Shown one piece after another: positions 4,958 through 61,999 of a stretch of 64,000 nt of DNA. A model generated the notes under the pieces. That model did not search any database, was not told the origin of the DNA, and worked only from the letters and a program-made list of their open reading frames with translations. The first letter of the stretch is position 1; each line of letters begins with the position of its first letter. The translations under genes were made by a program, and so were the position numbers. Origin of the DNA: Carcharhinus amblyrhynchos (Eukaryota); NCBI GenBank assembly GCA_965287045.1, contig OZ336877.1:88474001-88538000 (forward strand), read 5' to 3'.

Positions 4958-5875
4958 ACATGATGTGGATATGCCGGCGTTGGACTGGGGTAAACACAGT
5001 AAGAAGTCTGACAACACCAGGTTTAAGTCCAACCGATTTATTTGATTGTAAACTCACAAGCTTCCGAGGTTAAGCTCTTCTTCAGGTGAATGAAGAGTTC
5101 TGGCCTCAGACAGAGCATATAAAGCACAGACAGCTTACAGATTACTGATTAGGATGCGAATCTTTACACCTAACCTGCTGTTCAAGTCTTAAAGTGGCCG
5201 ACAGTGTGAGTGGAAGGAGCACTGATCACAGGTTAAAGAGATGTGTATTGTCTCCAGACAGTACAGTAAGTGTGGTTTTGCAAACCCAGGCAAGTCACAG
5301 GGGTTACAGATAGTGCGACATGAACCCAAGACCCTTGTTGAGACCGTCCTCATATGTGCGGAACTTGGCTATCAGTCTCTGCTCAGTGACTCTGCGCTGT
5401 CGTGTGTTGTGAAGGCCGCCTTGGAGAATGACCTTTGGGTAACCATTCTCCAAGGCGGCCTTCACGACACACGACAGCACAGGGTCGCTGAGCAGAGACT
5501 GATAGCCAAGTTCCGCACACATGAGGACGGTCTCAACAGGGATCTTGGGTTCATGTCGCACTATCTGTAACCCCCATGACCTGCCTGGGTTTGCAGAACC
5601 TCACTTACTGTACTGTCTGGAGACAATACACATCTCTTTAACCTGTGATCAGTGCTCCTTCCACTCATATTGTCGGCCACTTTAAGACTTGAACAGCAGG
5701 TTAGGTGTAAAGATTTGCATTCTAATCAGTAGTTTGTAAACTGTCTGTGCTTCATGTGCTCTGTCTGAGGCCAGAACTCTCCATTCACCTGAAGAAGAGC
5801 TTAACCTCAAAAGCTTGTGAGTTTACCATCAAATAAATCGGTTGGACTTAAACCTGGTGTTGTCAGAATTTTTAC
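4958..5875. mobile_element. fold-back (inverted) Penelope-like element insertion no.1
   Basis: inverted arms 4999-5430 / 5444-5875, extra 41-nt tail on the left arm only; GIY-YIG C-terminus (ILQGGLHDTRQ..EQRLIAKFRTHEDGLNRD); 11-bp TSD aaaataaaagg at 4947-4957 and 5876-5886. Confidence 0.93.
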
Positions 5876-12611: not shown

Positions 12612-12951
12612 GACAGCATGGTATCACAGTGGTTAGCACTGCTGCTTCACAGCTCCAGGGACCTGGGTTCGATTCCTGGCTTGGGTCACTGTGGAGATTG
12701 CACATTCTCCTCGTGTCTGTGTGGGTTTCCTCTGGGTGCTCCGGTTTCTTCCCACAGTCCAAACATATGCGGGTTAGGTTGATTGGCCATGCTAAAATTG
12801 CCCCTTAGTGTCCTGAGGTGCGCAGGTTAGAGGAAATAGCGGGTAAAATATGTAGGGATATGGGGGTAAGACCTGGGTGGGATTGTGGTCAATGCAGACT
12901 GAATGGGCCGAATGGCCTCTTTCTGCACTGTAGGGTTCTATGATTCTATGA
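12612..12951 (+). mobile_element. HE1-like SINE (CR1-type tail)
   Basis: tRNA head, core, ttctatgattctatga tail. Confidence 0.9.
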
Positions 12952-17633: not shown

Positions 17634-17735
17634 CAAAACCTGAAAAAAGGTCACTTTGCAGCCAGGCTGATGAAATTGTTGCTTCATTTCTACTTGGTGT
17701 TCACAGTTTCAGTCACTTTAAATCTTGTAATAAAG
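17634..17735 (+). CDS. DPY19L4: DPY19L4 coding exon D
   Basis: aacag|CAA...AAG|gtaagt; 102 nt; QNLKKGHFAARLMKLLLHFYLVFTVSVTLNLVIK. Confidence 0.92.
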
Positions 17736-18479
17736 GTAAGTATGATCTCTTGCAGTCGGGTATGTAGTTTTGTCATTATTATTTTGCACTTCATTTGCTG
17801 AAGACCAGATTATTCTTTATTTCAGTAACACACAGAGCTAAATAGCCTACTCTTGCCCCGAAGGCTTTGTTCTTCATGGCATGTCCCTCATGCAGATAAA
17901 GACTTTCTGTTTGTTTGCATGGCAAACATTGAGTAACCTTGTCACAAATATCTGGAATAAGCTTTATGTAAGGATGAAACCTTACATAATTATTGCACAA
18001 TATTATGTTTACCCTGTATTGAATATTTCTAGATATTTAAAATTTTGAATTTGCCACATTCCTCTCCTGAGAAGAGGTCTACTTGTCATGACATTTACCT
18101 TCATTGAAGGAGCCATTCTTTATTTGTGACGAAAAATAAGACAATGAGTATTGATATTCAGGTCTTCTTGGGTAGCAGCACAGCTAAGCCTAATGCTATG
18201 CTCATTCAAAGTGCCTTCCAGTGAGTATGGCTGGATAGCAGTCAGGATTGTTTCTCTTTTTACCCCCTCTAATTCACTACATTGAGGTCAATTGTGTCAT
18301 CGCCAATCTTATCCTGGCTCACTTCATATCTCTCTGTTTTTGTTCTGTCATTCTCATTTTAACAGCAACACCATTCATTTCTTGAAGCTTCATGGTTGGA
18401 TCTTAGAGTAGAAAGTTGCCCTGTTTTGTGGCATGTCAGTATGTTTCTGATTCTCGAGTTTGAGAGGAACTCAGCAAGC

Positions 18480-18760
18480 TCCTTAGGCAGCACCATCCAA
18501 ACCCATGACTACGACCATCCAAGAAGACAAGGGCAGCAGATACCCGAGGTTTTCCTCCAAGCCGCTTGCCGTCCTGACTTGGAACTCCATCACTGTTGCT
18601 GGGTTAAAATCCAGGAACTCCCTCCCTACCAGCACTGTGGATGTACCTACACCATAGGGACTGCAGCAGTTCAAAAAAGCAGCTCACCTCCCTCTTTTCA
18701 AGAGCAACTTGGGATGGACAATAAATGCTGGCCTAGCCAGTGATGCCCACATCTTGTAAA
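18480..18760 (+). mobile_element. old CR1-like LINE 3' tail
   Basis: sense copy of the tail family also seen on the minus strand at 25005 and 33680 (caataaatgctggcctagccagtgatgcccacatc). Confidence 0.65.
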
Positions 18761-21700
18761 CAAATGTTTGCAAAAACCTGAGTGCAGTTTTATTCCCTAT
18801 TTAGACATTCTTTCCTGAAAAAAAGTTGCTTGCATTCACTGGACTTGAATGCATGCAAAAAGTTTACTTTGTAAACTGTGTGGGTTAAGTAGAAGATCGG
18901 TTTTGTGTGAAGATCCTTCACACAAGCATCACCTTGACATTGTGCTGGGAATAATGGTTGACTTTTTTTGCACTCCCTATACTTCGGCCAACTGATAACC
19001 CTGCCGCTCCTATCCTGATTGAGATCTTGCGTTGTATCTTTTCCGCTTATTGCTGGAGTAAGGTTTTGTGTAATTGTATACAGTGCCCATTATTTCTGGC
19101 TGGTCCTAGCCATAGAGGGTAAGCACTTATAGGCTATTTCAACTGTGGAGGGCACCCCAGCCAAACCCAGTCCCATCCTAATCCAATGTTTAAATTTACG
19201 TACTTTACAATGGACCATAATCGTGAATAGAAACCTTGTCTAATTTTAGTTTCTGTAGCCCAAGAACCAGTTACAACAACCTAAATGATCTCCAGCCAAG
19301 ATCAGCTAACTGAACACAAATAAGAAATTAAATCCTGGATTTCTGGTCTGAATGGTTCAGTATTTTGCTGATTAATAGGCAAAATTCTACTTGAACTATT
19401 TTTCATCCCTGAATATTTTCATTTTGTATTTGCAGCACCGTGATTCTTTTGATTTTAAAACAATGGATTGATCCCCATGTGTATTGATGACAGAAAATAT
19501 AACACAAAAGGGAGATGATTATGTACAAAGAGATTGTCTCATTTGCCAGAAAGCTAAGTACTGAAGAAATGTGAATATTTCTCAGCGTAATTTCTGACAA
19601 AAATTAGAATAGTGAAATAGTGAAACATAAGGAAAAAAATCTATTTCAGAATGGCGAAGCAAAAAATCATCATATGAATCTCTTCTTTGATTGGATTGTA
19701 TATTCTTCCCAGTTAACTGAATCTCTTTTTAGAAGACAAATACCATTTTTTGTTCAAAGAACAAATAACAGTACAGCACAGGAAAAGGCTCTTTGGCCCA
19801 CCAAGTCTGGGCCCACACAGATGCCTCTCTAATCTAATATATTCTTGCCTCCACTTAGTCTATATCCCTCTATTCCCCACCTATTCATGTATCTATCCAG
19901 ATGCCTCTTGAACATTGCTGTACAATCTGCTTCCACCACCTCCTCTGGCAGTGCGTTCCAGGCATTCACCATCCTCTTTGTAAAAAACCTGCCCCTTGCA
20001 TCTCTTTTAAACTTCCCCCTTCTCACTTTCAACCTACACCCTCGAGTCATTAACTCTTCGACCCTGGGAAAAAGATTTTGACTATCCACTCTACCTTTCT
20101 TCATAGCCCATATCCTCCAAACCAGGCAACATCCTGGTAAATCTCTTCTGCACACTTTCCAATGCACCAGTATCCTTCCAGTAATGTGGTGCCCAGAACT
20201 GTACAGGATGCACGGGGAGATGTAATAACTGGAAATGAAAAAATAGCTGAGGCATTGAATAGGTATTTTGTGTCGGTCTTCATAGTGGAAGACACAAGTA
20301 ATGGCTTTACCCTCATCCACCTCTTTGGTCACTTTCTCAAAGAATTCAATAAGGTTTGTGAGGCACGACCTACCCTTCACAAAACCGTGTTGACTATCCC
20401 TAATCAACTTATTCCTTTCTAGATGATTATAAATCCTGTCTCTTACAATATTTTCCAAAACTTTGCCCACAACAGAAGTAAGGCTCACTGGTCTATAATT
20501 ACCAGAGTTGTCTGTACTCCCCTTCTTGAACAGGGGGACAACATTTGCTATCCTCCAGTCTTCTGGCACTATTCCTGTAGACAATGATGACATAAAGATC
20601 AAAGCCAAAGGCTCTGTAATCTCCTCCCTAGCTTCCCAGAGAATCCCAGGATAAATCCCATGTGGCTGAGGGGACTTATCTATTTTCACACCTTCAGAAT
20701 TGCTAACACCTCCTCCTTATGAATCTCCATCCCGACTCATCTAATAGCCTGTATTTCAATATTCTCCTTGACAACATCGCCTTTTTCCTGTGTGAATACT
20801 GATGAAAAATATTCACTTAGCCCCTCTCCTACCTCTTCAGACTCCACGCACAACTTCCCACTACTATCCTTCACTGGCCCTAATCTTACCCTAGTCATTC
20901 TTTTATTCCTGACATATCTATAGAAAGCTTTAGGGTTTTCCTTGATCCTACCTGCCAAAGACTTCTCATGTCCCCTCCTGGCTGTTCTTAGCTCTCTCTT
21001 TAGGTCCTTCCTGGCTAACTTGTAACTCTCAAGCGCCCTAACTGAGCCTTCATGTCTCATCTTTACATAATTTTCTTTCTTCCTCTTCACAAGAGATTCA
21101 ACTTCTTTAGTAAACCACGGTTCTCTCGCTCGACCATCTTCCTGTCTGCCTGGCAGGTACATACTTATCAAGGACATGCAGTAGCTGTTCCATGAACAAG
21201 CTCCACATTTCAATTGTGCCCATCCCCTGCAGTTTTCTTCCACATCCTATGCATCCTAAATCTCACCTAATCACATCATAATTTCCTTTCCCCCAGCTAT
21301 AACTCTGCGGTGTATACCTAATCTTTCCATCGCTAAAGTAAATGTAACCGAATTGTGGTCACTATCACCAAAGTGCTCTCCTACCTTCAAATCTAACACC
21401 TGGCTTGGTTCATTACCCAGTACCAAATCCAATGTGGCCTTGCCTCTTATTGGCCTATCTATATACTGTGTCAGGAAACCCCCCTGCACACATTGGACAA
21501 AAACTGACCCCTCTAACATACTCGAACCATAGCATTTCCTGTCAATATTTGTAAAGTTAAAGTCCCTCATAACAACTACCCTGTTACTTTCATTCCTATC
21601 CAGAATCATCTTTGCAATCCTTTCCTCTACATCTGCTGGAACTGAAAACTCCCAACAGGGTGACCTCTCCTTTCCTGTTTCTAACCTCAGCCCATACTAC

Positions 21701-22213
21701 CTCAGTAGACGAGCCCTCATCAAACATCCTTTCTGCCACCATAATACTGTCCTTGACTAACAATCCATACCTCCCCTCTTTTACTACCTTCCCTGATCTT
21801 ACTGAAACATCTAAACCCTGGAACCTGCAACAACCATTCCTGACCCTGCTCTGTTGTGGCCATGTCTCTGAAATGGCCACAACATCAAAGTCCCAGGTAC
21901 CAATCCGTGCTGCAAGTTCACCCACCTTATCCTGGATGCTCCTGGCGTTGAAGTAGACACACTCCGAGCCACCTTCCTGCCTGTCGGTACACTCCTGTGA
22001 CCTTGAAACCATATTCATGACTTCTCTACTCTCAACCTCCTATACACTGGAGCTACAATTCAGGTTCCCATCCTCCTGCTGAATTAAACCCTCCCGAAGA
22101 GCATTAGCAAATTTCTTTCCCAGGGTATTGGTACCCCTGTGGTTCAGGTGTAGACACAGTAAAAAGTCTGACAACACCAGGTTTTAGTCCAACCTATTTA
22201 TTTGATAATATTC

Positions 22214-22251
22214 TCACTAGCTTTCGAGGGGACAGCCTCTTCGTCAGGTGA
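22214..22251 (-). ncRNA. minimal type I hammerhead ribozyme motif (mirror copy)
   Basis: exact reverse complement of 23766-23803. Confidence 0.82.
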
Positions 22252-23765
22252 ATGGAGAGTTCTGGCCTCAGACAGAGCATATAAAGCACAGACAGTTTAG
22301 AGATTACTGATTAAAATGCGAATCCTTACACCTAACCTGCTGTTCAAGACCTGAAGTGGCTGACAATGTGAGTGGTAGGAGCACTGATCACAGTTTAAAG
22401 AGATGTGTATTGTCTCCAGACAGTACAGTAAGTGAGGTTTTGCAAACCCAGGCAAGTCACGGGGGTTACAGATAGTGCGACATGAACCCAAGATCCCTGT
22501 TGAGACCGTCCTCATGTGTGCGGAACTTGGCTATCAGTCTCTGCTCAGCGACTCTGCGCTGTCGTGTGTCGTGAAGGCCGCCTTGGAGAATGCTTACCCG
22601 AAGGTCAGAGGCTGAATGCCCGTGACCACTGAAGTGTTCGCCAACAGGAAGGGAACAGTCTTGCCTGGTGACTGTCGAGCGATGTTCATTCATCCGTTGT
22701 CGTAGCGTCTGCATGGTCTCCCCAATGTACCATGCTTCGGGACATCCTTTCTTGCAACGTATCAGGTAGACAATGTTGGCCGAGTTGCAAGAGTATTTAC
22801 CATGTACCTGGTGGATGGTATTCTCACGTGTGATGATGGTGTCCATGTCGATGATCCGGCATGTCTTGCAGAGGTTGCTGTGACAGGGTTGTGTGGTATT
22901 GTGGTCACTGTTCTCCTGAAGGCTGGGTAGTTTGCTGCGAACAATGGTCTGTTTGAGGTTGTGTGGTTGTCTGAAAGCAAGAAGTGGGGGTGTGGGGATG
23001 GCCCTGGCGCCAGGGCCATCCCCACACCCCCACTTCTTGCTTTCAGACAACCACACAACCTCAAACAGACCATTGTTCGCAGCAAACTACCCAGCCTTCA
23101 GGAGAACAGTGACCACAATACCACACAACCCTGTCACAGCAACCTCTGCAAGACATGCCGGATCATCGACATGGACACCATCATCACACGTGAGAATACC
23201 ATCCACCAGGTACATGGTGAATACTCTTGCAACTCGGCCAACATTGTCTACCTGATACGTTGCAAGAAAGGATGTCCCGAAGCATGGTACATTGGGGAGA
23301 CCATGCAGACGCTACGACAACGGATGAATGAACATCGCTCGACAGTCACCAGGCAAGACTGTTCCCTTCCTGTTGGCGAACACTTCAGTGGTCACGGGCA
23401 TTCAGCCTCTGACCTTCGGGTAAGCATTCTCCAAGGCGGCCTTCACGACACACGACAGCGCAGAGTCGCTGAGCAGAGACTGATAGCCAAGTTCCGCACA
23501 CATGAGGACGGTCTCAACAGGGATCTTGGGTTCATGTCGCACTATCTGTAACCCCCGTGACTTGCCTGGGTTTGCAAAACCTCACTTACTGTACTGTCTG
23601 GAGACAATACACATCTCTTTAAACTGTGATCAGTGCTCCTACCACTCACATTGTCAGCCACTTCAGGTCTTGAACAGCAGGTTAGGTGTAAGGATTCGCA
23701 TTTTAATCAGTAATCTCTAAACTGTCTGTGCTTTATATGCTCTGTCTGAGGCCAGAACTCTCCAT

Positions 23766-23803
23766 TCACCTGACGAAGAGGCTGTCCCCTCGAAAGCTAG
23801 TGA
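23766..23803 (+). ncRNA. minimal type I hammerhead ribozyme motif (PLE-type)
   Basis: stem I tcac/gtga, core CUGACGA, stem II gagg/cctc, GAAA, palindromic AGCU stem III, predicted cut after CUA (23799). Confidence 0.82.
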
Positions 23804-24384
23804 GAATATTATCAAATAAATAGGTTGGACTAAAACCTGGTGTTGTCAGACTTTTTACTGTGTTTACGCCAGTCCAACGCCGGCATACCCACATCATGAC
23901 TACTATCGTTCAGGTGTAGACCATCCCATTTGTAGAGGCCCCACTTACCCCAGAATGAGACCCAATTATCCAGGTATCTGAATCGCTCCATCCTGTACCA
24001 TCCCTGTAGCCACATGTTCAACTGCTCTCTCTCTCCCTATTCCTCGGCTTGCTAGCACATGGCATGGGCAACAAACCAGAGATAACAACTCTGTTTGTTC
24101 TAGCTCTAAGCTTCCACCCTAACTCCTTTAATTTCTGCCTTACATCCCCATCCCTTTTTCTACTTATGTCGTTGGTGCCTTTATGGACCACGACTTGTGG
24201 ATGGTCCCCCTCCCCTTAAAGATCCCGAAAACATGATCTGAGACATCACGGATCCTGGCACCTGGGAGGCAACACACCAACCGCAAGTCTCCCTTGTTCC
24301 CACAGAATCTCCTATCTGTCCCCCTAACTATGGGGTCCCCAGTGACTAATGCTCTACTCCTTTTATATCTGTTTTATCAGCTCA

Positions 24385-24715
24385 CTTCAGATTCCATATG
24401 ACTTTATCTTCTGCATCAGCCTGTCTTGAGGAACCTTATCAAAAGCTTTACTAAAGTCCATGTATACAGCATCCACTGCTCTGTCCTGGTCAATTTTTCT
24501 TGTCACTTCTTCAAAGGACTCAATCAAGTTTGTGAGACACGACCTCCCCTTCACAAATCCATGCTGCCTATCATCAATAAGCCTATTCTTTTCCAGATGT
24601 GAGTGCATCCTATCCTAAGAATCTTCTCCAATAATTTCCCCACCACTGATGTAAGGCTCACAGGCCTGCAATTTCCTGGATTGTCTCTTCTGCCCTTCTT
24701 GAACAGAGGAACAAT
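24385..24715 (-). mobile_element. CR1 RT fragment
   Basis: QHGFVKGRSCLTNLIESFEEVT..VYMDFSKAFDKVP. Confidence 0.9.
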
Positions 24716-24769
24716 TCAATTAAGCGATGTGGACTTTGCTAACTAGTCCAGCATTCAGTGCCCATCCAT

Positions 24770-25002
24770 AATGATGTTAGGGGTAGGTTTTTCACTCAGA
24801 GGGTGGTGAGTGAATGGAATTGGCTGCCGTCAGTGGTGGTGGAGGCGAACTCGCTGGGGTCTTTTAAAAGACTTCTGGATGAGTATATGGGATTTAATGG
24901 GATTGGGGGTTATAGAAAGGTCTATGGATTGGTAGGTATTGATGTGATCGGTGCAACTTGTGGGCCGAAGGACCTGTTTGTGCTGTAGTGTTCTATGTTC
25001 TA
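24770..25002 (+). mobile_element. CR1 3' end
   Basis: DVRGRFFTQRVVSEWNWLP.. then gttctatgttctat tail. Confidence 0.88.
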
Positions 25003-25004
25003 TA

Positions 25005-25890
25005 ATTGCCCTTGTGAAAGTGGTGGTGAGCAGCCTTCTTGAGCCACTGCACTCCAAGTGGCGTAGATACACCCATAGTTGTGTTAGGTAGAGTGTTCCA
25101 CGATTTAGGAACAGCAATATATTTCCAATCAGGATGGTGAGTGACTTGAAGGCGAACTTGCAGTTGTGTTCTCATGCATCTGCTGCCCTTATCCTTCTAG
25201 ATGGTACACGCCATGGGTTTGGAAGGTGCTATATGAGGAACTTTGGTGAGTCCCTATAGTGCATCTTGTAGATGGTACACGCTTGTTGCTACTGTCCATC
25301 GGTGATGGAGGAAGTGGATATTTGTGGAAGGAGTGTCAACCAAGCTGGCTGCTTTGTCCTGGATGCTGTCAAGCTTCTTGAGTGTTACTGGAGCTGCCCT
25401 CATCCAGGCAAGGGGGAAGTATTCCATCACACTCCTGATTTGTGCCTTGTAGATTGTGGACAGGCTTTGGGGAGTTGGGAAGTGAGTTGTTCACCACAGG
25501 ATTTGTAACCTCTGACCTGCTCCTGCAACCACAGTATGTATATGGTAAGTCCAGTTAACTTTCTGGTCAGTGATTACCTCCAGAACGTTGATAGTAGGGG
25601 ATTCAATGATGGTAATGCCATTGAATGTCAAAGGGCAATGATTAGATTGTCTCTTGTTGGAGATAATAATTGCTTGGCACTTGTTTAGTGTGAGTGTTCC
25701 TTGCCATTTGTCAGCCCAAGCCTGGATATTGTCCAGGTCTTTCTGTATTTGAACATGGACTGCTTTAGTACCTGAGGATTCACAAATGGTGCTGAACATT
25801 GTGAAATCATCAGCGTACATCCCCTCTTCTGACCTTATGACGGTAGAAAGGTCATTGACAAAGCAGCTGAAAGTGGCTGAGGCAAGAACA
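25005..25890 (-). mobile_element. older CR1-like LINE fragment
   Basis: minus ORF CFVNDLS..MYADDFTMF..QKDLDNIQAWADKWQ..NKCQ. Confidence 0.85.
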
Positions 25891-26202
25891 CTAGTATACT
25901 TCTTTGAACCCAAAACATATGAATGAAAACTGAAGCACAATAAATTAATATTGTATTTTATAGTATTCAATCCAAATGGCAGCATTTTGCAGGCGCCATC
26001 CCAGTGACTTTATGAAACTGAAGTAAACATTACATTTGGCTGTACACTTATCCTTTTACACTGCAGTACTGTTCATAGCAGTTATCTGAGTGGGAACCAT
26101 ACTCTCTGCAAGAGCAGATCAATGTTAGAAAATTAAAGATAATTAAAGTCAGTTGAGGTGAGGTGGTAGGTAATTGCTCATCTGATGCAAAGTAGATACC
26201 AT

Positions 26203-26325
26203 GGGCAGGATTTTACAACCTCGCTCGAGCGAGACCAGAATACCAGCCTGAGTTCAACAGATGCATCTGTTGTTCATCCCTCGCCCGCTCCGATTCTGTG
26301 ACGCATGGGGCAGTAGAATTTCGGC
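26203..26325. mobile_element. short MITE-like remnant
   Basis: imperfect TIRs ggcaggattttac / gtagaatttcggc around a CpG-rich core. Confidence 0.4.
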
Positions 26326-26426
26326 ATATGTCTGTCTTGGCCTGTTTTTCATAGTTGTTTGTTTGTCACTATGACTGTGACTTCAACCCTGGAATTCACG
26401 ATTTCTTTTTATTGAAATATGCACAG

Positions 26427-26500
26427 AAAATGGTCCCCCAAGAGGAAAATGAACACATAATAAAGTTTTTTGAAGCAAAATTTGACTTGAATACTACAAG
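26427..26500 (+). CDS. DPY19L4: DPY19L4 coding exon E
   Basis: cacag|AAA...AG|gtatgt; 74 nt, phase 0/2; KMVPQEENEHIIKFFEAKFDLNTT(R). Confidence 0.92.
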
Positions 26501-28365: not shown

Positions 28366-28675
28366 ACAAAATCTCACTAACTGTCCTGTCTGGAGACAAT
28401 ACACATCTCTTTAACCTGTGCTTAACCCTCTCTCCACTCACATTGCCTGTACCTTTAAGATTTGATTACCTGTAAAGACTTGCATTCCAACCATTATCTT
28501 GTAATTGTGTTTGTATCTATATATGCCCTCTTTGTGAACACAACTCCTCACTCACTTGAAGAAGGAGTGACACTCTGAAAGCTTGTGCTACCAAATAAAC
28601 CTGTTGGACTTTAACCTGGTGTTGTGAGACTTCTTACTGTGCTTGCGCCAGTCCAGTGCTGGCATCTCCACATCA
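28366..28675 (+). mobile_element. solo Penelope-like 3' end (second subfamily) with degenerate hammerhead and full tail
   Basis: ctgtctggagacaatacacatctctttaacctgtg...; cac-TTGAAGA-a-ggagt-gac-actct-GAAA-gctt-gtg (28553-28587); aataaa; tail ...ctccacatca. Confidence 0.85.
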
Positions 28676-30056: not shown

Positions 30057-30215
30057 AGACTTCAACACAAATTTGCTGCTCTGTCAGGAAACCTTCCAAA
30101 CTCCATCACAAGAATTCTTTATCCGACTGACTCAGACCTGTCTGCTCCCATTCTGTATGTCTGTGTTGGTTATCTGCCTTTTCTCAACCTTGGAAGTAGC
30201 TTCCAGGAAGTTTCG
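30057..30215 (+). CDS. DPY19L4: DPY19L4 coding exon F
   Basis: cttag|A...CG|gtaagg; 159 nt, phase 2/2; DFNTNLLLCQETFQTPSQEFFIRLTQTCLLPFCMSVLVICLFSTLEVASRKF(R). Confidence 0.93.
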
Positions 30216-30497
30216 GTAAGGTGGGAATTAAGGGTTGTTGTCAAAGCATATTACTGTGTGCATCCAAAAGATTTAGTCTGAATTCTAAAGAAATACTCTA
30301 CAATTCATTTGAGATGGCATAGTGGTTAGCTCTGCTGCCTCACAGCACCAGGGACCTGGGTTCAGTTCCTGGCTTGGCGTCACTGTCTGTGTGGAGTTTG
30401 TACATTCTCTGTGTCTGTGTGCGTTTCCTCCGGGTTCTCCAGTTTCCTCCCACAGTCCAAAGATGTGCTGGTTAGGTGCACTGGCCATTCTGAATTA

Positions 30498-31482
30498 TGA
30501 TGTGGATATGCCGGCGTTGGACTGGGGTAAACACAGTAAAAAGTCTGACAACACCAGGTTTAAGTCCAACCGATTTATTTGATAGTAAACTCACTAGCTT
30601 TCGAGGGGTTTCCCTCTCCTTCAGGTGAGTGGAGAGTTCTGGCCTCAGACAGAGCATATAAAGCACATACAGTTTACAGATTACTGATTAGAATGCGAAT
30701 CTTTACACCTAACCTGCTGTTCAAGCCCTAAAGTGGCCGACAATGTGAGTGGAAGACTGTTCCCTTCCTGTTGGCGAACACTTCAGTGGTCACAGGCATT
30801 CAGCCTCTGACCTTCGGGTAAGCATTCTCCAAGGCGGCCTTCACGACGCACGACAGCGCAGAGTCGCTGAGCAGAGACTGATAGCCAAGTTCCGCACACA
30901 TGAGGACTCAACAGGGATCTTGGGTTCATGTCGCACTATCTGTAACCCCCATGACTTCCCTGGGTTTGCAAAGCCTCACTTACTGTACTGTCTGGAGACA
31001 ATACAGTGAGTTTCCTCTGGGTGCTCCGGTTTCCTCCCACACCCCAAAGATGTGCTCTTAGGCTGATTGGTGTACCAAATCGACACTATTCTCCCCTGAA
31101 TCTGGCAACATTAGGGATTCCATTCACATACACACAGGGCATGGTAGGTGTAGGAAGATGGGGCGGCGTGGGCTCGTTGGGCCGAAGGGCCTGTTTCCCA
31201 TGCTGGGTTGTTCTTTGTTCTTTGTTCTAATACACACATCTCTTTAACCTGTGATCGGTGCTCCTTCCACTCACACTGTCGGCCACTTTAGGACTTGAAC
31301 AGCAGGTTAGGTGTAAAGATTCGCATTCTAATCAGTAATCTGTAAGCTGTCTGTGCTTTATATGCTCTGTCTGAGGCCAGAACTCTCCATTCACCTGAAG
31401 AAGAGGGAAACCCCTCAAAAGCTAGTGAGTTTACTATCAAATAAATCGGTTGGACTTAAACCTGGTGTTGTCAGACTTTTTA
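30498..31482. mobile_element. fold-back Penelope-like element insertion no.3 (asymmetric arms)
   Basis: short minus arm with full tail 30498-30755 joined through aag microhomology to a longer plus arm (DCSLPVGEHF...AKFRTHED) ending cagacttttta; 13-bp TSD ccat(t/g)ctgaatta at 30485-30497 / 31483-31495. Confidence 0.92.
31006..31228 (+). mobile_element. 5'-truncated SINE with (GTTCTTT)n tail nested in Penelope arm
   Basis: SINE core tttcctctgggtgctccggtttcctcccac; TSD aataca (31000-31005 / 31229-31234). Confidence 0.85.
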
Positions 31483-31892
31483 CCATGCTGAATTACCCCG
31501 TGGTGTCAAGTAAATGTGTAGGTTATGGGGATGGGGCCTGGGTGGGATTGTGGTCAGTACAACCGAATGGCCTCCTGCTGCACTGTAGGATTCTATGAAT
31601 ATATAATAGTGCACTTGCATTAAGTTTTATATGTATGAAATCCTTTTAGAAAATATTTCATGCAACTGCAGGATTAATTTATTGACTAGAATAAGCAGTG
31701 AATGGGAAAGAGTGACTAATACTGGAAACATTTAACTGGATGCTAAGACAATGTGCCTCATCATTTGTTTGATGCATGCTATGCCCATTAATTTGAGAGA
31801 TGCTGGTGTTGAACAGACGAACTTTAGTATTTTGGACATTTTGTTTTAGTGGTAAGTATTCCTAAATATTGTTTTGTTTCTGGAAATGTTGT

Positions 31893-32296: not shown

Positions 32297-33137
32297 CTGC
32301 AAGATATTCTAACAAATAATGCCCAAGGCAGTTACACAGCCTTAGTCTGGTGTATTTCTTTAATGGAAAAGTAAAGGTCCAGTAATGTCTTGTTTCACTG
32401 ACTAGTTGCAGGATGAAACTCTGCCATCATCCATTGACACGTAGAAATTGTGACAGAGCTCAACAACTTTGGGAGCTTTGCATTTGCGAGAACTACATGT
32501 TGTACGAGTGTTTCATTTCACTTCAGATGGTTGTAGCTATACTTTCAATGATGAATTGAAGCATTCAATCAATTGGCAACATAGCAAACCAGTCAGTTGG
32601 GGCAGGGCTTAACGATGTTAGCAACTTGCCGTTACTAACATCACCAGCTCTGAATGGCTTGTTAGAGCACTGTATTCATCTTTGAATTAAATTTTAGATT
32701 TAATCTACAATTGTAACCTTTTGTAAGAATAGAGCATTTATTCTGCATGAAGATAACTTAGTATTTGAGAGGCTTCTGATGCTGTGAAATTCTACCATGC
32801 GATATCTGTTTCAGCTTGAGGCAATAAGTTCTAGTGAAGCCAATCTATTATTAATCAAATTGAAATAAGATGAAATCATTGCAGTACAAATACTTCACAG
32901 TATCTATACTCTTTACGTTCATCAAGAATACCATAACCTGCTGATGACCAAAATTGGTAGCTTCGAGCTTCTGTAAATCATATAAATTGTGCTGTGTTTA
33001 TACCCAGTCTGATTAACTAGATGACTAAATAGTAAATTTTTTTAAAAAACTCAAGCTTTTCTAATACAACTAAGTGTGAGAATATTTCTGCACACTCATC
33101 ATATGTTATAATTCATTCTCTGGGTGTAGACATCACA

Positions 33138-33451
33138 CGGTGTCTCAGTGGTTAGCACTGCTGCCTCACAGCACCAGGGACCCGATTTAATTCCGGCCTT
33201 GGGTCACTGTCTATGTGGAGTTTGCATGTTCTCCCCATGTCTGCATGGGTTTCCTCTGGGTGCTCCAGTTTCCTCCCACAGTCCAAAGATGTGTGGGTTA
33301 GGTGGATTGGCCATGCTAAATTGCCCCTTAGAATTGGGGGATTTGAAGGGTAAAATACATGGGGTTGCAGGGATAGGGCCTGAGTGGGATTGTCGTCGGT
33401 GCAGGCTCGATGGGCCAAATGGCCTCTTTCTGCACTGTAGGGATTCAATGA
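33138..33451 (+). mobile_element. HE1-like SINE (CR1-type tail)
   Basis: tRNA head, core, ctgcactgtagggattc tail. Confidence 0.9.
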
Positions 33452-61107: not shown

Positions 61108-61688
61108 AACCTTTTACCTTAAACATACGTCCTCTAGTAATTGACATTTTTAAAATGGGAAGAAGACTCCGAATATTCATTCTACCCATGCCTCTCATAA
61201 TTTTGTGAACTTCTTTCAGGTCACCCCTCAGCCTCAGACATTCAAGTGAAAACAAACCAAGTTTTTTTCTATCTCTCCTCAGCTAATACCTTCCAAACCA
61301 TGCAACATCCTGGTAAACCTTTTCTGTGCCCTTCCAAAGTCTCCATACCCTTCCGGTAGTGTGACAACCAGAACTGTATACAATATTCCAAATATGGCCT
61401 AACTATAGTGCTGTGCATCTGAAACATGACTTGTCAATTTTTATACTCTATGTCCTGACTGAAGGCAAATAAGCTATATGCATTCTTGATCACTGTATCC
61501 ACTTGTGTTGTTACTTTCAGAGAATTGTGGACCTGTATGCTTAGATCCCTCTGTATGTTAATGATTCTAAGGGTAGTGCCATTTACTCTATATTTCCTTC
61601 CTGCATTAGACCTTCCAAAATGATCACCATGCATTTGTCCGGATTAAGTTCCATCTACCATTTCTCCGCCCAAGTCTCCAGTTTATCT

Positions 61689-61999
61689 GGGGTGGCACAG
61701 TGGTTAGCACTGCTGCCTCACAGCGCAAGTGACGTGGATTCAATACTGGCCTCGGGTCACTGTGTGAAGTTTTGCACATTCTCTTCATGTCTGTGTGGGT
61801 TTCCTCCGTGTGCTCTGGTTTCCTCCCACACTCCAAGATACGTGGGTTAGGTTGATTGGCCATGCTAAATTGCCCATTAGTGCCAGGAGCATTAGCAAGG
61901 TAAATATGTAAGGTTAAGGGGATGGGGTCTGGGTGGGATTGTTGTTAGTGTAGGCTTGATGGGCCAAACGGCCTCCTGCGCTGTAGGAATTCTATGATT
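61689..61999 (+). mobile_element. HE1-like SINE (CR1-type tail)
   Basis: ggtggcacagtggttagcactgctgcctcacagc head; ctgtaggaattctatgatt tail. Confidence 0.9.

Follow-up and report, generated by a model that had tools for sequence, protein, structure and literature searches.

Among the traits by which endonuclease-bearing Penelope-like elements are recognized is a CCHH motif, whose two cysteines lie between the GIY half and the YIG half of the endonuclease (PMC8557442). Head-to-head repeats with palindromes at the junction have already been reported for these elements (Arkhipova et al. 2013, PMC3846280). Where this paper and Craig et al. 2021 (PMC8557442) deal with insertion, the terminal tail is ascribed to resolution by the endonuclease, and the palindromes are put down to self-priming on antisense templates, a route proposed for rotifer Penelope elements (PMC3846280). 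In vitro, the protein of the anole Poseidon element cuts and extends both DNA strands (Frangieh et al. 2024, PMC11167929). According to the same source, two adjacent internal RNA start sites bound the tail, the protein is predicted to dimerize, and the hammerhead is dispensable; the start sites are described there as not different between strands, and the later steps are left undefined. Minimal hammerheads are reported as needing a tandem partner and as poor cleavers (PMC4209133). Self-folding repeats in pre-mRNA, such as lizard Penelope and the palindromic frog Harbinger, are targets of ADAR (Porath et al. 2017, PMC5625713), and lizard Penelope, heavily A-to-I edited, is the one other massively edited LINE-class repeat named in that source. 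A 2026 preprint on retrozymes (10.64898/2026.07.22.740005) has no bearing on the structure described here.

The window analyzed here is a stretch of 64,000 nucleotides of Carcharhinus amblyrhynchos (assembly GCA_965287045.1, contig OZ336877.1, positions 88,474,001 to 88,538,000 of the forward strand). A palindromic insertion of this class resides in it, within an intron. Its features, and the exons that flank the intron, are the following.

17634–17735, plus strand: DPY19L4 exon upstream of the host intron
22142–22155, plus strand: target-site duplication, left copy; the last 2 nt match the element too
22154–23008, minus strand: left, untailed arm, the 3' end of a 5'-truncated element (linker, GIY-YIG, 3' UTR)
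22213–22252, minus strand: left-arm minimal hammerhead motif, mirroring that of the right arm
22466–23008, minus strand: left-arm GIY-YIG endonuclease frame, truncated
23008–23009, no strand: centre, CG in both arms, zero spacer
23009–23863, plus strand: right arm, paired part
23009–23551, plus strand: truncated right-arm frame, with the end of the RT-endonuclease linker (CX4CxxC), GIY-YIG with CCHH residues, and stop
23219, plus strand: single arm-arm mismatch, private G, U-G wobble in pre-mRNA
23765–23804, plus strand: minimal type I hammerhead motif, assigned by hand against PMC4209133, no Rfam match
23815–23820, plus strand: AATAAA; its mirror at 22197–22202, minus strand
23864–23908, plus strand: Penelope tail, right arm only, in which the element ORF starts (ATG at 23896)
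23908–23921, plus strand: target-site duplication, right copy; the first G matches the element too
26427–26500, plus strand: DPY19L4 exon downstream of the host intron, located by tblastn

The two arms, 855 bp each, are exact reverse complements bar one position, T22798 facing G23219. Complementarity, walked outward from the centre, ends at the break 22153/23864, and the arms abut between C23008 and G23009 with 0 nt in between. A repeat finder and the outward walk agree on this in the assembly sequence, which bears out the arms, junction and single mismatch given in a preliminary description of the locus. A GIY-YIG frame, a hammerhead motif and an AATAAA had also been claimed for each arm, and all are present. 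The picture of two mirrored modules holds for the arms and fails for the unit as a whole, which is asymmetric: the 45-nt tail, with the start codon of the element inside, is found on the right arm only, and the GIY-YIG frames of both arms are 5'-truncated remnants lacking a start or promoter of their own. The open frame of either arm matches GIY-YIG (Pfam PF01541) marginally (E 1e-4, 22.9 bits, cut-off 22.6).

The hammerhead core, CTGACGA...GAAA, was assigned by hand against the minimal hammerheads described in PMC4209133, and an Rfam scan yielded no hammerhead match at E≤1. In the right-arm motif a helix I of 5 bp is followed by CUGACGA, a bulged A, a helix II of 4 bp and GAAA, and the self-complementary AGCU stands where helix III would be. 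Free folding of the region did not yield the ribozyme fold (z +1.6), the expected outcome for a motif which lacks helix III. Rfam microRNA hairpins matched the centre below threshold in all cases; these matches follow from the palindrome itself, and were discarded.

The unit is bracketed by the 14-bp direct repeat GTTCAGGTGTAGAC, found within the window at 22142–22155 and 23908–23921 only. It lies in an older host repeat which, from motifs in its reading frames, we take to be CR1-like. At 11 of 11 paralogous loci of this host repeat, the left flank runs directly into the right one, the two overlapping in a single copy of the 14-mer. Since these loci correspond to the empty site, the 14-bp repeat is a true target duplication, and the unit a single insertion, as had been proposed.

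The host gene is DPY19L4, again in line with the preliminary description. In a homologue search, two shark DPY19L4 proteins matched one exon (30061–30213) with 94% and 92% identity. The unit lies in the plus-strand intron 17736–26426, as delimited by tblastn, 4.4 kb and 2.5 kb from the flanking exons. A motif search for the downstream exon found nothing, and the exon was located by tblastn. A protein-cluster comparison of one exon yielded STT3-like clusters only, and DPY19L4 was established by the homologue search. Two more DPY19-family genes, putative paralogues, were identified by Pfam search elsewhere in the genome (C8:44760463-44836020, on the contig of the window, and C4:28654809-28711757).

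The element belongs to a large family. In the 2.92-Gb genome, 40 scored loci are 99–100% identical to the arm used as query; exact matches number 24,493 for a 32-mer close to the element's 3' end and 4,785 for a 30-mer located ~500 nt upstream of it. A full natural copy, arranged in partial tandem, was found at locus L033 (L033:2145-6171). Its open ORF of 893 aa encodes an RT (Pfam RVT_1, E 1e-9), a CX4CxxC linker and a GIY-YIG domain with CCHH. RT and C-terminal GIY-YIG reside in a single ORF in this copy, and the focal insertion represents its 3' part only. The two cysteines of the CCHH motif lie in VYLIRCKKGCPEAWYIG, and two His-bearing motifs follow. The linker, CHSNLCKTC, fits the CX2-5CxxC criterion of the Neptune and Nematis clades. 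Partial tandems or pLTRs, an inverted 5'-truncated copy and a one-sided tail of 30–40 nt are all present in the family, and the extra 45 nt of the focal unit are the Penelope tail, which contains the first codons of the ORF. The minimal hammerhead core was found in 137 of 200 arms, with a varying helix II, and fits the description in PMC4209133; Rfam gave no match. Judged by the definitions in PMC8557442, the motifs place the family among the endonuclease-bearing Penelope-like elements, with an assignment to the Neptune/Nematis type. The Penelope origin suggested earlier is borne out by the GIY-YIG of the arms and by the RT and GIY-YIG of the full-length ORF. Full-length units were found also at L081, L082, L090 and L120; given these and the open ORF of L033, the family is probably still active.

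Family loci were sampled by two probes. Among the first 100 listed matches of the upstream 30-mer, 80 of 84 clusters were taken; among the first 100 listed matches of the 3'-end 32-mer, 40 of 50 further clusters. All 120 stretches come from the first 49 Mb of contig C1. To these were added 29 loci from the arm search, 14 of them extended, and the window. A head-to-head junction was found in 78 of the 120 C1 stretches, a few of which are segmental duplicates. The 118 junction calls reduce to 107 unique ones, and 99 pairs remain once 7 complex or very old junctions and the focal one are set aside. Within the first 6 Mb of C1, some insertions recur in identical form at several positions (L095–L098, L157/L166, L080/L088, L078/L164), pointing to segmental duplications or tandem blocks.

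Head-to-head pairs follow common rules. Counting from window position 23858, tailed arms end at +27 to +53 (mode 39–40) and untailed arms at -14 to +18 (mode 0–1), and one tailed and one untailed arm make up the pair in 82 of the 82 cases in which both outer ends are resolved (17 of the 99 are unresolved). Among 36 solo copies both kinds occur (13 tailed, 21 untailed, 2 unresolved), so that free choice between the two sites would yield many pairs with two tails or none. Exact target duplications flank 49 of 53 scored pairs, with a peak at 12 bp (11 bp, 1; 12 bp, 22; 13 bp, 12; 14 bp, 7; 15–17 bp, 7), and the focal duplication of 14 bp fits 12 bp plus end homology; in solo copies, duplications of at least 10 bp were found in only 11 of 36. 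Within 34 young pairs, minor subfamily alleles are common to both arms in 50 of 64 cases, versus 150 of 1705 between loci; the 14 discordant alleles are concentrated in few loci (L008, L081, L086, L022).

The 5' ends of the arms are coupled. In three samples drawn separately, ends at most 30 nt apart were found in 7 of 45 pairs (2.0 by permutation, p 0.002), 20 of 28 (6.9, p < 5e-5) and 4 of 24 (1.0, p 0.012). In 74 asymmetric pairs the arm extending further 5' is the tailed one in 41 and the untailed one in 33; when it extends more than 30 nt further, in 33 and 20, respectively. Spacers exceed 30 nt in 37 of 48 long pairs. Microhomology of at least 2 nt marks the centre in 20 of 29 insert-free young junctions, versus 15% by chance, and short inserts, several copied from adjacent sequence, are present in 14 of 43 junctions. 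At the focal centre the microhomology is the CG common to both arms, 2 nt and self-complementary, the only way in which two identical ends can anneal. A 30-nt sequence across this centre is unique in the genome by exact match search, and the palindrome has therefore not been amplified as a unit.

The rarity implied for the focal unit had been overstated: head-to-head pairs are the usual product of the family, and other long pairs with spacers of 0–2 nt are present among the sampled loci (L022, L104, L112, L150). Such pairs make up 3 of the 80 loci of the 30-mer sample, corresponding, if C1 is representative, to an extrapolated ~150 genome-wide (95% range ~30–420). Five gapped junction patterns, with at most 30 nt between motifs, matched 1289, 276, 31, 33 and 18 junctions genome-wide. 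Loops were counted by hand, among the matches listed, in all 82 junctions of the three smaller patterns and in 50 each of the two larger ones. Loops of 0–2 nt occur in 16 of the 82, versus 15.5–18 expected, and a zero loop in 12 of 182 among the matches listed, versus 7.6–8.8 expected (p 0.08–0.17). Taken alone, the sampled loci showed an excess near exact symmetry (absolute delta ≤2 in 4 of 45, versus 0.31 expected) and suggested a sharp spike at zero spacer; the idea was dropped, as the larger genome-wide counts hold no clear excess. Pairs with zero spacer are best regarded as the extreme of a near-symmetric class, not as a separate spike. No loss of tight palindromes with age was detected among long pairs (3 of 31 young, 1 of 17 older, p 1.0). 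Near-symmetric short pairs pile up below a TATA-like box, just upstream of the hammerhead (1289 junctions at -91, 276 at -127). This pile-up may reflect run-off at the transcript start or an RT stop, and it is not used here as evidence because motif conservation differs between the patterns. Among the listed -91 pairs one junction recurs in 7 of 50, and one perfect centre in 3.

The focal unit is best explained, with a rough probability of 0.6, as a recent 5'-truncated insertion made by twin priming on one RNA, followed by end joining of the two cDNAs. What is observed is the membership in the family, the youth of the unit, the target duplication, the one-tail arrangement, the CG overlap and the family-wide features; the steps that would connect them are as follows. 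The element protein likely cuts the two DNA strands ~12 bp apart, and each cut end likely primes one cDNA on the same RNA. This RNA would be held by a dimer, its two protomers sitting at the tail site (~+39) and ~40 nt upstream (~+1), respectively. Both cDNAs would run toward the same broken or stalled 5' point, and their ends, trimmed by a few to ~30 nt, would be sealed by microhomology-type, polymerase-theta-like end joining, at the focal locus via the 2-nt self-complementary overlap. Microhomology and templated inserts, the signatures of joining by polymerase theta, suggest the latter step. A zero spacer would arise when the overlap is a self-complementary word equidistant from both ends. 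In favour of the model are the family rules given above and the in vitro activity of the anole protein on both strands, with its two adjacent start sites and predicted dimer. To copy one RNA twice would require strand displacement, which weighs against the model, as do the discordant alleles (14 of 64), the lack of a clear spike at zero, the few duplications of solo copies, and the in vitro observation that start sites do not differ between strands, made on an element of another clade (Poseidon). Most long pairs, moreover, are far from symmetric, with spacers >30 nt, so that a common stop would account for some of the events only.

The foremost alternative, which we consider unlikely, is self-priming: antisense RNA or the first cDNA would fold back at its 3' end, the hairpin would be inserted, and trimming by the endonuclease would leave the tail. 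Allele sharing within pairs, microhomologies of 2–3 nt and near-symmetric centres are all explained by it, as is the recurrent junction mentioned above, whose sequence fits a stem of 3 bp and a loop of 7 nt. The outer and inner ends of the arms argue otherwise. Fold-back of a tailed strand cannot yield an untailed arm that is the longer one, as seen in 33 of the 74 asymmetric pairs, by more than 30 nt in 20; an untailed strand folding back cannot create a tail; and loops of 0–2 nt, as at the focal locus, are too tight for priming. Twin priming is preferred chiefly because the untailed arm is so often the longer.

Next in rank, and doubtful as well, is twin priming on two separate RNAs held in one dimer, arm lengths being coupled by timing and alleles by few sources or assembly in cis. 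This would avoid strand displacement, and would fit the many strongly asymmetric pairs and the discordant alleles; it offers no reason why the start sites should differ in 82 of 82 pairs, nor why ends should lie within 30 nt of each other after hundreds of bases.

It is very improbable that the centre or one arm is an artefact of assembly or polishing, caused by a fold-back read or a lost spacer. Long perfect hairpins are hard to sequence, and the centre is read from the assembly. Four sequencing runs that aligned to the locus leave 22228–22459 uncovered and have mostly 90–95% likeness, and are therefore regarded as being from other species; the aligned stretch ended 22 nt past the centre, the best runs had at most 0.24 of flank words in common with the locus, and no RNA run was among those listed. 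An artefact is opposed by the unique flanks, which join up again as host repeat around a 14-bp duplication, by the one-sided tail seen in all family pairs, by the private G23219 of the right focal arm (found in 1 of 83 arms), and by short pairs and older diverged ones whose centres have this geometry too.

The insertion had been described as either very recent or homogenized by arm-to-arm conversion, and the former holds. The left focal arm shows 0 differences in 850 bp to both arms of L031 and to L038; the focal arms are therefore no more alike than the age of the copy would lead one to expect, youth explains their identity, and conversion is not needed. L031 itself (C675:48000-56000) is a 4.8-kb head-to-head pair with paired arms of 2.2 kb, one difference and a 400-nt spacer. 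An older insertion kept identical by conversion is the least probable of all readings, given that in 56 pairs mean divergence is 1.24% between arms and 1.19% to the nearest copy, that older pairs diverge by up to 11%, and that a common template explains the young pairs which are closer than their nearest sampled relatives (L031, 0.05% versus 0.5%; L131, 0 versus 0.85%).

Other repeats mark the window. A head-to-head pair of the same family, older (arms 6.3% apart), with a 13-nt spacer and the tail on the left arm, resides at 4959–5875 in a different DPY19L4 intron. A third pair (30497–31483) starts ~280 bp after a DPY19L4 exon, and a SINE-like insert (~31006–31233) interrupts its right arm. 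At 28367–28675 lies a solo 3' fragment, tailed and older (72%), from a related subfamily. At least 8 copies of a SINE-like repeat, presumably tRNA-headed, are present (e.g. 449–760, 12614–12935, 33133–33442, 61685–61991).

In the DPY19L4 pre-mRNA the arms are able to pair fully, as a duplex of ~855 bp in which the sole mismatch is a U-G wobble on the plus strand; the folding capacity attributed to the transcript earlier is thereby upheld. As the hammerheads lie on opposite strands, each transcript holds one sense hammerhead, paired to the antisense one, and no tandem partner in cis. The duplex would bury the right arm's sense hammerhead and AATAAA. Because of this burial, and because the minimal type needs a tandem partner, ribozyme action at the focal locus is unlikely. 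Editing by ADAR is plausible by analogy with the edited lizard Penelope repeats. Most likely the focal insertion is a neutral passenger, and its pre-mRNA hairpin a predicted ADAR substrate.

That Penelope-like elements in general integrate by obligate two-site twin priming, with a 12-bp stagger, one RNA copied twice and microhomology joining by the host, is a proposal to which we give even odds. If true, one rule would account for inverted pLTRs, one-sided tails and junction palindromes. The family would be a factory for thousands of intronic hairpins, loading ADAR and dsRNA sensors in cartilaginous fish, ~150 of them, by rough extrapolation, with arms >400 bp and almost no spacer. The hairpins built into the family offer a simple reason for the heavy A-to-I editing of lizard Penelope repeats. 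The insertion statistics of a young, large family constrain a step left undefined in the cited papers, the way in which inverted repeats and one-sided tails of Penelope-like elements arise. Together, the one-tail rule, the peak at 12 bp and the alleles shared within pairs provide a specific model, testable in the in vitro system already at hand. No model of twin priming or end joining for Penelope inversions was found in a search of mainly open-access papers.

Twin priming is reportedly known from L1, in work of Ostertag and Kazazian: both target ends are said to prime on one RNA, and joining at microhomologies gives an inversion within the target duplication. In L1 the second primer anneals internally and the two parts hardly overlap; in the focal family the starts are at most 40 nt apart and the sequence is copied twice. 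A palindrome results because both cDNAs start within 40 nt on the same sequence. Poseidon, as studied in PMC11167929, belongs to a clade different from the focal family, which has a CX4CxxC linker, and the main text of that paper does not tie the two start sites to the two arms of inverted insertions. With the endonuclease-bearing elements described in PMC8557442 and PMC3846280, the family shares an RT with C-terminal GIY-YIG, partial tandems (as at L033), an inverted 5'-truncated copy, a 30–40-nt tail at one end, junction palindromes, a short target duplication and a hammerhead in the pLTR. Unlike the elements presented in these sources, the focal unit is made of two long truncated arms with no full ORF, and the rules of the family are counted here at family scale. 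Taken by itself, the focal locus is what a known class ordinarily produces, striking but not rare; what is new is the regularity of the family, that is, the one-tail rule, the 12-bp peak, shared alleles, coupled 5' ends and microhomology.
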